Shown here: positions 4,161 to 18,721 of the stretch, in pieces
Numbering within the stretch: the stretch's first letter is position 1
How the letters are laid out: every line of letters begins with the position of its first letter
From: Phascolarctobacterium sp.
Lineage (GTDB): Bacteria; Bacillota; Negativicutes; Acidaminococcales; Acidaminococcaceae
Direction of reading: 5' to 3'
Length of the DNA: 64,000 nt
NCBI GenBank assembly: GCA_017623055.1
Contig: JAGAPX010000023.1
Coordinates: 7,138 to 71,137 of the forward strand
Program-made: the position numbers and the translations under genes
The notes under the pieces: model-generated
Seen by the model: only the letters and a program-made list of their open reading frames with translations
Databases searched by the model: none
Told to the model about the DNA's origin: nothing

Positions 4161-4303
4161 TTTTAGGCTAATTAAAATAAAAATCATATCATACCAATAG
4201 AGGAACAGGACATATTGATGTCGAATTGAATAGTAGTTAAGTTTGTATGAATTTTTTGAGAAGAAATTCTGATAGACGTTTCATTGAAGGATGGGAAATA
4301 ATT

Positions 4304-5974
4304 ATGAAAAGAACGACTAGTTTAACGATATTAAGTGCTTTGATTATGGGTAGCTTTATGGGAACAGCCTTAGCTGCACCGGGAAACATTCCTGATACTT
4401 TAGCTAATAAAGTAGATTTTGCGTCCCAACAACTTAAAGACGATGCTACGTTGCGTAGTTACTACGAAGCAAGCAAATATAAAGACGAGCTTCCTCAAAG
4501 TACTGACATCAAATATGACAAAGAGCTTGTTGCTCCTCAAGAAAGTGTATTGAATTTTGAAGTCAAAGAGCTTCGTGTTACTAAGTCTGAACTTTTAACT
4601 GCGGATGAGTTGCGTAGTGCTATTCAATTTGTGGGTGCTAAGACCATGAGCGTTAAAGAGCTGCAAAAAATTGTTGATAGAATCAATAGTGCATATTTAG
4701 CAAAGGGGATTCAAACTGCGCAGGCTGTGCTGCCGCCCCAAGTAGTGCGTGATGGTGTAGTGTATATCCGCTTAATCGAAGGGCGTTATGGTGAAATCAA
4801 AGTACAGGGTAATAAACGTATTCTCGAAAGCTATGTTAAGGATAGGGTTAGTGCAACTACTAATGAGTTAAGTGATTTGAACCAATTACAAAAGGACTTG
4901 CTTTTGTACAATAATACTAATAACTTCCGCTTACGCGCAGAGCTTGTTCCTGGGAAGGAGCTTGGTTCTTCCGATTTAGTTCTGACCATAGATGAAGCTG
5001 TAAATCCATGGAAGAGCTATTTTTTTGTGGATAATGCCAATCAAGATGAGAGTGGTTTGTATAGAGCAGGTTTTGTATCTGCTGCCTACGGGTTAAGCGG
5101 TGCGGATGATCGCTTGTTGGTTAACCCAGTTTTTACAGAAGGTACAATTAGCGGTTTGATTAGTTACGATGCACCTATCAGTAATGAGGGTACACGCGCT
5201 AATATTTCTTTTAGCCGTAACCGTGTAAAGATTATTGATGGTAGATTTGAAGATTTTGATATTATGGCGCACTCTAATGATTTATCCATTGGTGTAAGCC
5301 ATCCCTTGAACGTTACTCCGTTGACCAAGATAGATGTTTTCGTAGAAGCTCATCGTAAATGGTCTAACACGGAATATTCTGGTTGGAACATTGCAGATAC
5401 TGATACGAATGCGCTCAAGATAGGTTTAAATCTACGAAAGTACGATAAAAATGGTTTGTGGTTTGCTCAGGTGAGTGCTACAAGTTTCAACACAGATTTC
5501 AACATTAGAAATGAGCAGGCTGATGGAGACTATTATGGTGCTTATTGTATGCGCCGCCAGAATTTGTCTGCTGGGCAATATTTGTTAGTGCGTGCTTTCG
5601 GACAGTTTACTAACGATAAAGAGTTACCTTCTTCCGAACAGTTTTCTATCGGTGGTATTGCTACAGTGCGTGGTTATGAGGAAAGTGAGTTGAGTGGCGA
5701 CAAAGGTTGGGTTGCCAGCGTCGAGTATGGTTTCCCGATTTCTAAGGATAATCAAAGCTTACGAGGGTTTGCTTTTTATGACCATGGCGCAGTTTATGAC
5801 AATTATTCTGCAACTACCACGAGAAAGTATATTAGCAGTACGGGCGTGGGTTTAGAATTTTTCCAAAAGGGTTGGTATGGTAGATTGGCACTGGGGGTAC
5901 CTTTAGAAGACAGTGGGAATGATATTCATAGCTCCAAGACACGTACTCACTTCTATTTGCAAAAGGATATTTAG
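4304..5974 (+). CDS. TpsB outer-membrane transporter (ShlB/FhaC/HecB family, Omp85 superfamily)
   Basis: Signal peptide MKRTTSLTILSALIMGSFMGTALA/AP. POTRA-like segment (ELRVTKSELLTADELRSAIQF...GVVYIRLIEGRYGEIKVQGN). ShlB-type barrel motif FSIGGIATVRGYEESELSGDKGW. The maximal ORF starts at 4247, but ATG 4304 gives a proper signal peptide and has AGGA upstream. Confidence 0.85.
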   Translation: MKRTTSLTILSALIMGSFMGTALAAPGNIPDTLANKVDFASQQLKDDATLRSYYEASKYKDELPQSTDIKYDKELVAPQESVLNFEVKELRVTKSELLTADELRSAIQFVGAKTMSVKELQKIVDRINSAYLAKGIQTAQAVLPPQVVRDGVVYIRLIEGRYGEIKVQGNKRILESYVKDRVSATTNELSDLNQLQKDLLLYNNTNNFRLRAELVPGKELGSSDLVLTIDEAVNPWKSYFFVDNANQDESGLYRAGFVSAAYGLSGADDRLLVNPVFTEGTISGLISYDAPISNEGTRANISFSRNRVKIIDGRFEDFDIMAHSNDLSIGVSHPLNVTPLTKIDVFVEAHRKWSNTEYSGWNIADTDTNALKIGLNLRKYDKNGLWFAQVSATSFNTDFNIRNEQADGDYYGAYCMRRQNLSAGQYLLVRAFGQFTNDKELPSSEQFSIGGIATVRGYEESELSGDKGWVASVEYGFPISKDNQSLRGFAFYDHGAVYDNYSATTTRKYISSTGVGLEFFQKGWYGRLALGVPLEDSGNDIHSSKTRTHFYLQKDI

Positions 5975-6016
5975 TTTTACATATAGTTAGGTGATTTTCA
6001 TAAGGAGAACGGAATT

Positions 6017-18670: not shown

Positions 18671-18687
18671 TTTGTAGGCTTATGTGA

Positions 18688-18721
18688 AAGGCATCTCTTA
18701 AATTGAGAGGTGCCTTTTTTC
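18688..18721 (+). terminator. intrinsic terminator after tpsA
   Basis: Stem GGCATCTCT / GAGAGGTGCC (one G-U pair), loop about TAAATT, then TTTTTT (18715-18720). Confidence 0.7.

Follow-up and report, generated by a model that had tools for sequence, protein, structure and literature searches.

A two-partner secretion locus beside efp in Phascolarctobacterium sp. encodes a giant LktA-family protein, most likely a filamentous adhesin

Introduction

Phascolarctobacterium is a common succinate consumer of the gut and, as a Negativicute, possesses an outer membrane; we know of no surface adhesins described for this genus. In a stretch of 64,000 nucleotides (nt) from a Phascolarctobacterium sp. contig (JAGAPX010000023.1, positions 7,138 to 71,137 of the forward strand; below, 'the window', in whose own numbering positions are given), an earlier note had pointed to two neighbouring genes between efp and the M50/trpS operon. 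It had read them as a two-partner secretion (TPS, or type Vb) island, in which a tpsB-like transporter gene is followed by tpsA, encoding an exoprotein of 4,217 amino acids (aa). This raises the question of whether the pair is indeed such a system, how it came to lie next to efp and what its giant product might do.

Our analysis makes it probable that the pair is a functional type Vb operon, the product of which is most likely a surface-attached or released filamentous adhesin. The locus combines an Omp85-family TpsB carrying POTRA domains and the VRGY tetrad, a cargo protein with a TPS domain, signal peptides on both proteins and two adjacent, co-oriented genes. In addition, the cargo exceeds the curated cut-offs of both LktA-family models, NF012204 and NF012206. 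The coordinates of all features are collected in Table 1.

Table 1. Features of the TPS locus, in window coordinates
Feature	Position	Strand	Details
efp intrinsic terminator, left island boundary	4127..4160	+	hairpin 4127-4152 and T-run to 4160
Leader/regulatory region of the TPS operon, inside the island	4161..4303	+	
tpsB open reading frame (ORF), mechanical call	4247-5974	+	575 aa
tpsB	4304..5974	+	556 aa; Omp85-family TpsB transporter from conserved ATG
Intergenic gap	5975..6016	+	42 nt; AAGGAG ribosome-binding site for tpsA
tpsA	6017..18670	+	12,654 nt, 4,217 aa; LktA-family filamentous exoprotein; 437 kDa, pI 4.4
Long N-terminal signal region	6017..6223	+	residues 1-69; basic extension MRMTRKIRRAWLRGKPEWAKCY..., hydrophobic core, cleavage site VANA/SE
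TPS secretion domain, LktA (FxxPxG) type	6284..6769	+	residues 90-251; NF012204 6.9e-35
Tandem repeats (LktA_tand_53), presumed β-helical shaft	8654..13456	+	~53 aa x ~30 units, residues ~880-2480
Conserved C-terminal module, without annotation	15068..18487	+	residues 3018-4157
Disordered acidic C-terminal tail	18488..18667	+	residues 4158-4217; pLDDT <50 over model residues 1141-1200
TPS operon intrinsic terminator, right island boundary	18686..18721	+	hairpin 18686-18718 and T-run

Results

The transporter gene

The first gene had been described as tpsB-like on account of a signal peptide, a POTRA-like segment and a ShlB-type motif, and this description was confirmed. TpsB matched the Pfam families ShlB (PF03865; 4.6e-23, 82.6 bits against a cut-off of 22.7) and POTRA_2 (PF08479; 1.1e-15, 57.6 bits against a cut-off of 24). 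Further matches were obtained to Omp85 (1e-12) and POTRA (PF07244; 4.6e-06, 27.7 bits). Besides its signal peptide, the protein has a pair of POTRA domains and a β-barrel of the ShlB type. At residue 447 (numbered from ATG 4304) it carries the motif FSIGGIATVRGYEESELSGDKGW, the VRGY tetrad of the L6 loop occupies residues 455-458 of 556, and the FxDxG-like stretch FAFYDHG is found at residue 489. By sequence, the closest solved relatives of TpsB are CdiB transporters (PDB 6wim, 2.7e-09).

The ATG at 4304, and not the mechanically called start at 4247, is almost certainly where tpsB begins, since it yields a canonical signal peptide, MKRTTSLTILSALIMGSFMGTALA/AP, and is kept in all four occupied alleles (see below). 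The signal peptides of both TpsB and TpsA were judged by eye from their sequences. An exact look-up of the 556-aa protein gave no match; the sequence collection has the 575-aa gene call instead. A TpsB with 51% identity is encoded at an unrelated locus, where it adjoins a 5,183-aa TpsA bearing an ESPR.

The N-terminus and the repeats of the exoprotein

TpsA starts with a long signal region, of which the hydrophobic core and the cleavage site cover residues 48-69 by inspection. The preceding basic extension aligns positionally with the Pfam ESPR of more distant relatives (P0004-P0013), although the Pfam ESPR hidden Markov model (HMM) itself did not match it. Behind the signal region, the earlier note had proposed a TPS-type secretion domain. 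The sequence strings quoted for it are present, and the NCBIfam model NF012204 (LktA-family filamentous adhesin N-terminal) matched, scoring 115.2 bits for the whole protein and 120.2 bits when the N-terminal 400 aa were searched alone (cut-off 60). On the other hand, the match to PF05860 that had been predicted is absent. Where the family name expects FxxPxG, TpsA reads FFSDKG, so that D replaces P. The motifs NQQV, ALNKF, DRQINLV and IGGDxYFFS of this domain are invariant across the aligned relatives.

The predicted fold of this region also points to a TPS domain. An AlphaFold2 model of residues 64-450, built from a 16-sequence alignment, reached a predicted local distance difference test score (pLDDT) of 85 and a predicted template-modelling score of 0.83. 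When this model was searched against the PDB with Foldseek, the top 19 matches were all TPS domains. FHA (1rwr) was the best of them (E 2.2e-4), HpmA, EtpA, HxuA and HMW1 were matched with probabilities of 0.75-1.0, and the first non-TPS match had a probability of 0.12.

The second LktA-family model, NF012206 (LktA_tand_53), matched TpsA in 19 stretches with 139.4 bits (cut-off 50), and with an iterated repeat HMM about 30 repeat units were mapped. This region presumably forms a β-helical shaft. As both NCBIfam models were passed, the earlier impression that TpsA stands closer to LktA than to FHA or ShlA is supported.

The C-terminal region

Downstream of the repeats, residues ~2480-4217 form a non-repetitive region of about 1,700 aa. 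In an exhaustive HMMER search, residues 3018-4217 matched 151 cluster representatives, with E<=1e-30 for 41 of these, and nearly all of the matches are collinear, giant proteins of 3,000-5,600 aa. The nearest relative, P0017 (4,164 aa), is 56-63% identical to TpsA over its whole length. Relatives that are collinear at full length measure 4,164-5,600 aa. The relatives have the same TPS domain and repeats and, apart from ESPR, carry no Pfam annotation either. When the C-terminal 1,000 aa were used in a word-indexed search, one match was obtained.

An AlphaFold2 model of the C-terminal region (pLDDT 76) contains β-rich segments and a small α/β unit, with a helical subdomain, a bundle of about 150 aa, at residues 3771-3923 and a terminal β-helix at residues 4006-4157. 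No significant match to the module was found in Pfam, in PDB sequence and profile searches, with Foldseek (best E 0.14) or with PADLOC. The acidic tail that follows ends in a degenerate copy of a family tail motif, SLY..GKD..acidic..hxF[GAS]EV...ExY, which was found in 18 of 46 family C-termini and in a fraction of 0.0007 of random windows. In longer relatives, 500-1,100 aa are inserted ahead of this tail.

If there is real novelty in the locus, it lies in the C-terminal module and the tail motif only. The module could be a periplasm-retained prodomain, a secretion-arrest device or a new cell-targeting effector. We also put forward, as a speculative and rather doubtful idea, that in the giant TpsA proteins of LktA type from Negativicutes module and tail together represent a functional unit of a new kind. 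If it were true, such a unit would make these proteins work differently from FHA, CdiA and ShlA.

The C-terminal region also bears on the possibility that the pair is an interbacterial competition device, in which TpsA would be a CdiA-like contact-dependent effector that inhibits the growth of neighbouring cells through its C-terminal module. Negativicutes are reported to have TPS proteins related to CdiA (PMC8510554), the presumed long filament of TpsA has a large C-terminal region without repeats behind it, and the locus is present or absent at the level of strains. However, TpsA has no Pfam FHA-repeat match and no VENN or pretoxin motif, and no candidate immunity gene follows, as the tpsA stop is succeeded directly by a terminator and then by the M50 gene. 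Moreover, the C-terminus is conserved and collinear in about 150 relatives instead of polymorphic. We therefore consider such an effector improbable. A contact-dependent growth inhibition (CDI) system proper was ruled out, given that neither a pretoxin motif nor a polymorphic C-terminus nor an immunity gene was found.

Gene spacing and transcription signals

The earlier note had placed a 12,654-nt ORF 42 nt behind tpsB with no terminator in between. The ORF coordinates and RNA folding confirmed this arrangement, and neither a terminator scan nor folding revealed a terminator-like site in the gap. As no terminator separates them, tpsB and tpsA are probably co-transcribed.

The pair was also found to be bracketed by intrinsic terminators, as had been suggested. 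The efp terminator has an 11-bp stem with 7 GC pairs (−20.6 kcal/mol, z −8.2) and the downstream terminator a 15-bp stem (−23.6 kcal/mol, z −5.2); in both cases, none of 200 shuffled sequences was as stable. Whereas the left terminator was recovered at exactly the position given before, the right one, which was missed by a simple scanner and seen by RNA folding, starts at 18686 and not at 18688.

Directly behind the tpsA stop codon (18670) follow this terminator and the M50 promoter and gene, with no small downstream ORF. The M50/trpS operon had been predicted to restart from its own extended −10 promoter. The element TGGTATAAT is indeed present ahead of the M50 gene, which starts with the ATG at 18788, and is kept in both empty-site relatives described below, but it is located at 18754-18762, 2 nt off the proposed 18752-18760. 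An exact-pattern scan of JGI metagenomes with this promoter gave no match.

The leader of the TPS operon harbours three boxes, TAGAGGA, TGTCGAA and GATAGA, which are invariant in all four occupied alleles despite TpsB identities of 69-85%. The leader is missing from the two empty sites, L007 and L088. A consensus promoter scan of this leader yielded nothing above chance, and an Rfam search of 3900-6200 gave chance-level matches only (E about 0.4).

Composition, boundaries and history of the locus

Spot counts had suggested that the island is more AT-rich than its flanks. Windowed GC analysis and the GC content at third codon positions (GC3) showed the same, and far more strongly than the spot counts implied. 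The GC content is 0.37-0.42 across the island and 0.45-0.47 in the flanks, and GC3 is 0.270 in tpsA, the lowest value in the window, and 0.345 in tpsB, compared to 0.424 +/- 0.050 in 43 backbone ORFs. EF-P and the genes around it point to an uncultured Phascolarctobacterium (Acidaminococcaceae, Negativicutes) as the host. The same locus was found on three independent metagenome contigs (L001-L003) with 99.8-99.99% identity. Over ~8 kb of tpsA, the sole difference is codon 2494 (13497), which encodes Val in the window and Ala in the three contigs. An exact look-up of TpsA gave no match; the sequence collection has variants that are one residue off. One of the three contigs, L003, carries 25 mostly synonymous single-nucleotide polymorphisms packed in yceG-U32 (557-1144), which looks like a recombination tract.

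As the earlier note had proposed, the efp-trpS interval was compared across relatives, and the locus turned out to be neither universal nor of backbone-like composition. Two contigs represent empty sites. In L007, from the same species (97-99% nt identity), efp is connected to M50 via 41 nt with a different terminator, and homology to the window restarts at 18732. In L088 (~87% nt identity), the spacer and the efp terminator are kept and directly followed by the M50 promoter; the alignments to the window end at 4158 and restart at 18714, sharing a 7-nt T-run. Since these two contigs fix the junctions, the island can be taken to extend over about 4159-18720, in good agreement with the self-contained accessory island at 4161-18721 described before. 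It consists of two genes only, its junctions fall on terminator T-runs with just the 7-nt overlap, and no integrase, transposase, tRNA target or target duplication was found at it. In addition, the flank is not repeated anywhere else in the window.

In L168, L169 and L008, the site next to efp is taken up by diverged alleles, with TpsB identities of 85%, 70% and 69%, respectively, and efp identities of 92-94% at the nt level. In L168, TpsA is full length (4,425 aa). Divergence was highest in TpsA (68% aa identity), lower in TpsB (85% aa) and lowest in efp (94% nt). With respect to composition, the GC3 of the TPS locus is 0.26 in L168, where that of the host is 0.52, and 0.66 in L170, where that of the host is about 0.42. 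The TPS loci thus deviate from their hosts in both directions, which argues for horizontal movement in the history of the family, not for an intrinsic codon bias. That low GC3 is an intrinsic trait of the gene family was ruled out, as the L170 locus is GC-rich relative to its host.

A recent mobile-element insertion was also ruled out, because there are no mobility genes and no target duplication, and because sister lineages have diverged alleles at the same site. The term 'island' is therefore not to be taken in the sense of a recent horizontal insertion. The locus shows both presence/absence among close relatives and an atypical composition. Together, the empty sites, the diverged alleles at the same site and the low GC3 indicate that it is an old, long-resident, fast-diverging and sometimes lost accessory cassette 3′ of efp, and the 3′ flank of efp is a recurrent site for it.

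These data also allow us to weigh whether the locus might be a relic, silent or in decay, that is, an AT-rich, poorly expressed cassette heading for loss. Such a relic would fit the GC3 of tpsA, the loss of the pair in L007 and L088, the lack of a leader promoter above chance in the consensus scan and the two ORFs into which a related TpsA is divided in L172. Yet the 12.6-kb ORF is maintained without a stop codon in four independent assemblies, the leader boxes and the start codon are kept across alleles that are 69-85% identical, and the orthologue at the same site in L168 is full length. We regard decay as very unlikely. In L172 (11745-21665), one ORF of 2,265 aa and another of at least 2,868 aa stand in place of the single 5,183-aa ORF of L170. 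A frameshift or a fault of assembly could account for this; the arrangement is reminiscent of lktA 'type 1b' in F. necrophorum, which is split as well.

The neighbourhood

The synteny of window 3989-30180 was compared with L011, L012, L022-L024, L026 and L030. The adjacency of efp and M50 is lineage-specific. In more distant Phascolarctobacterium and Succiniclasticum genomes, Asp23-family genes, which are found at 30183-31237 in the window, come directly after efp, and the M50-trpS-scpA-scpB block (18788-28144) lies elsewhere. There, a homologue of 61907-62683 precedes M50 in 72 of 80 loci. As synteny breaks after efp, the TPS pair sits exactly at a rearrangement junction. In other Phascolarctobacterium species, from the human gut, a TpsB-like gene of only 35% identity (L091, ~2845-4360; L093, ~1977-3480) is encoded ~2.5 kb upstream of M50 and immediately precedes the homologue of 61907-62683.

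Between the efp stop and the efp terminator (3989-4126), we observed a long imperfect palindrome of ~115 nt. Its RNA fold is far more stable for the minus strand (−45.1 kcal/mol, z −4.6) than for the plus strand (−27.2 kcal/mol, z −1.5). The palindrome is ~93% conserved in L088 and present in L168, whereas L007, L008 and L169 lack it. At 4032, within the palindrome, three Logan contigs break. A dispersed repeat as the cause of these breaks was ruled out, since the window has no second copy, and no Rfam family matched. The palindrome could be an antisense small RNA or a remnant resembling a miniature inverted-repeat transposable element or a repetitive extragenic palindromic element.

The relocated block has two minus-strand ORFs (28485-29933) at its right end, where the GC content dips (0.41-0.43 at 29-32 kb); Peptidase_C39_2 matched one of them weakly, and the other had no Pfam match. 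The other low-GC genes that were checked are housekeeping genes, encoding a PreP-like M16 peptidase, HydF and a glycosyltransferase resembling monogalactosyldiacylglycerol synthase. A 515-aa ORF at 41621-43165 has no Pfam match. A single 693-aa ORF (24982-27063) combines LytB (IspH) with four S1 RNA-binding domains and looks like an ispH-rpsA-type fusion.

Discussion

How might this pair work? TpsB would form an Omp85-type barrel in the outer membrane and expose its two POTRA domains to the periplasm. Both proteins would be exported by Sec, TpsA by means of its long ESPR-like signal region. The LktA-type TPS domain of TpsA would then dock on the POTRA domains, and the chain would be threaded through the barrel to fold extracellularly into a very long β-helical fibre. 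The roughly thirty 53-aa repeats are expected to make up the shaft of this fibre, and the conserved 1,200-aa C-terminal module with its acidic tail would form its end. In FHA, ~2,000 residues make a fibre of ~50 nm. By analogy, the fully extended fibre of TpsA could approach 100 nm. Its role would be attachment or aggregation in the gut and not that of a classical toxin.

For the function of TpsA, adhesion or aggregation is favoured, and we consider it somewhat probable as judged from the sequence. The locus has neither lktC nor an immunity gene, and in TpsA no pretoxin motif and no toxin fold could be recognised; its C-terminus is conserved, not polymorphic. Detection of a TpsA of Veillonella parvula in outer-membrane and surface fractions (PMC5491611) likewise supports an adhesin over a toxin.

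The main competitor of an adhesin is a host-directed cytotoxin like LktA of Fusobacterium necrophorum, which would be secreted by the TPS pathway and damage leukocytes or epithelial cells. LktA is T5b-secreted and kills leukocytes (bioRxiv 10.1101/534297; PMC11350119), and TpsA passes both of the NCBIfam models built on it. The fast divergence of TpsA and the slower divergence of TpsB also parallel the variation of 30% in LktA and 1% in LktB between F. necrophorum clades (PMC11350119). However, the two models span the N-terminal domain and the repeats only, that is, secretion and shaft, and are uninformative on toxicity. The third gene of the lktBAC operon, lktC, is missing, and searches of Pfam, PDB, Foldseek and PADLOC detected no membrane-active or enzymatic domain. 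In addition, relatives of TpsB are common in gut metagenomes, where some clusters at ~50% identity have thousands of members, and no disease link was found. A cytotoxin is thus an unlikely, but not a negligible, alternative to the adhesin.

Several observations speak against a TPS-secreted adhesin. Pfam gave zero matches to TpsA, PF05860 included, whether the whole protein (E<=0.01) or seven pieces of it (E<=10) were searched, and TIGR01901 scored 15.8 bits, below its cut-off of 29.1. The Foldseek E-values for the TPS fold were modest (2e-4 to 3e-2), with TM-scores of at most 0.60. Furthermore, nothing comparable to the C-terminal 1,700 aa is known, so that an unrecognised effector activity could reside there, and the family is named after the F. 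necrophorum leukotoxin, which makes a cytotoxic role possible. Because PF05860 is without a match and TIGR01901 stays below threshold, the TPS assignment rests on NF012204 and the predicted fold. With the TM-scores being moderate, the modelled N-terminus is best described as a diverged TPS domain.

With regard to novelty, the pair had been called the best candidate in the window for an undescribed functional system. This was overstated, since the LktA adhesin family is already catalogued, and current understanding of type V secretion is unchanged by this TPS pair. Type Vb secretion systems have been predicted in Negativicutes (PMC4793230), and NCBI names the relatives in Negativicutes and Phascolarctobacterium 'leukotoxin LktA family filamentous adhesin'. 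It had also been stated that no characterised member is known from a diderm Firmicute. In so far as we found no functional study of any Negativicutes TPS pair in the literature, this holds, although such pairs have been predicted, annotated by NCBI and, in Veillonella, detected by proteomics. On the practical side, Pfam misses the whole LktA-type TPS family, and Pfam-only pipelines leave these giant proteins without domain annotation. A strain-variable, exported fibre of 437 kDa would be a plausible determinant of niche attachment or of strain-level differences in colonisation.

Among known systems, the locus resembles lktBAC of F. necrophorum in its gene order, with the transporter gene first and the giant cargo gene second. 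Its N-terminal domain and 53-aa repeats pass the LktA-named models, and in both systems the cargo evolves faster than the transporter. It is not an lktBAC operon, since lktC is missing downstream of tpsA, and it further differs in that TpsA, which was set beside LktA (3,241 aa) through family models, is ~1,000 aa longer, that FFSDKG replaces the literal FxxPxG and that the host is a gut Negativicute and not a fusobacterial pathogen.

With FhaB/FhaC of Bordetella, which it would resemble in its mode of action, the pair shares a TpsB with POTRA domains and VRGY loop, a long repeat shaft and the TPS-fold N-terminus, for which FHA was the top Foldseek match. FhaB has a prodomain and an extreme C-terminus, of which the large C-terminal region of TpsA with its conserved extreme C-terminus is reminiscent by analogy. 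In contrast to FhaB, TpsA has no match to PF05860, PF05594 or PF13332, stays below threshold for TIGR01901, lacks NPNL/NPNG and has an unrelated type of repeat. The cytolysins ShlA, HpmA and ExlA differ from TpsA in having PF05860, NPNL and NPNG and in their shorter cargo, about 1,600 aa as compared with 4,217 aa. A ShlA-type cytolysin was ruled out on these grounds.

The likeness to CdiB/CdiA consists in a TpsB that is closest in sequence to solved CdiB and in a giant filament cargo, whereas TpsA is without VENN, VDNN or LYN-type motifs, a polymorphic toxin tip and an immunity gene. V. parvula, finally, has two TPS pairs, Vpar_0979/0980 and Vpar_1413/1414, and the TpsA Vpar_1413 is the one detected by proteomics in the outer-membrane and surface-exposed fractions (PMC5491611). 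Compared by description, these pairs resemble the present locus as Fha-like TpsA/TpsB systems of a diderm Firmicute.

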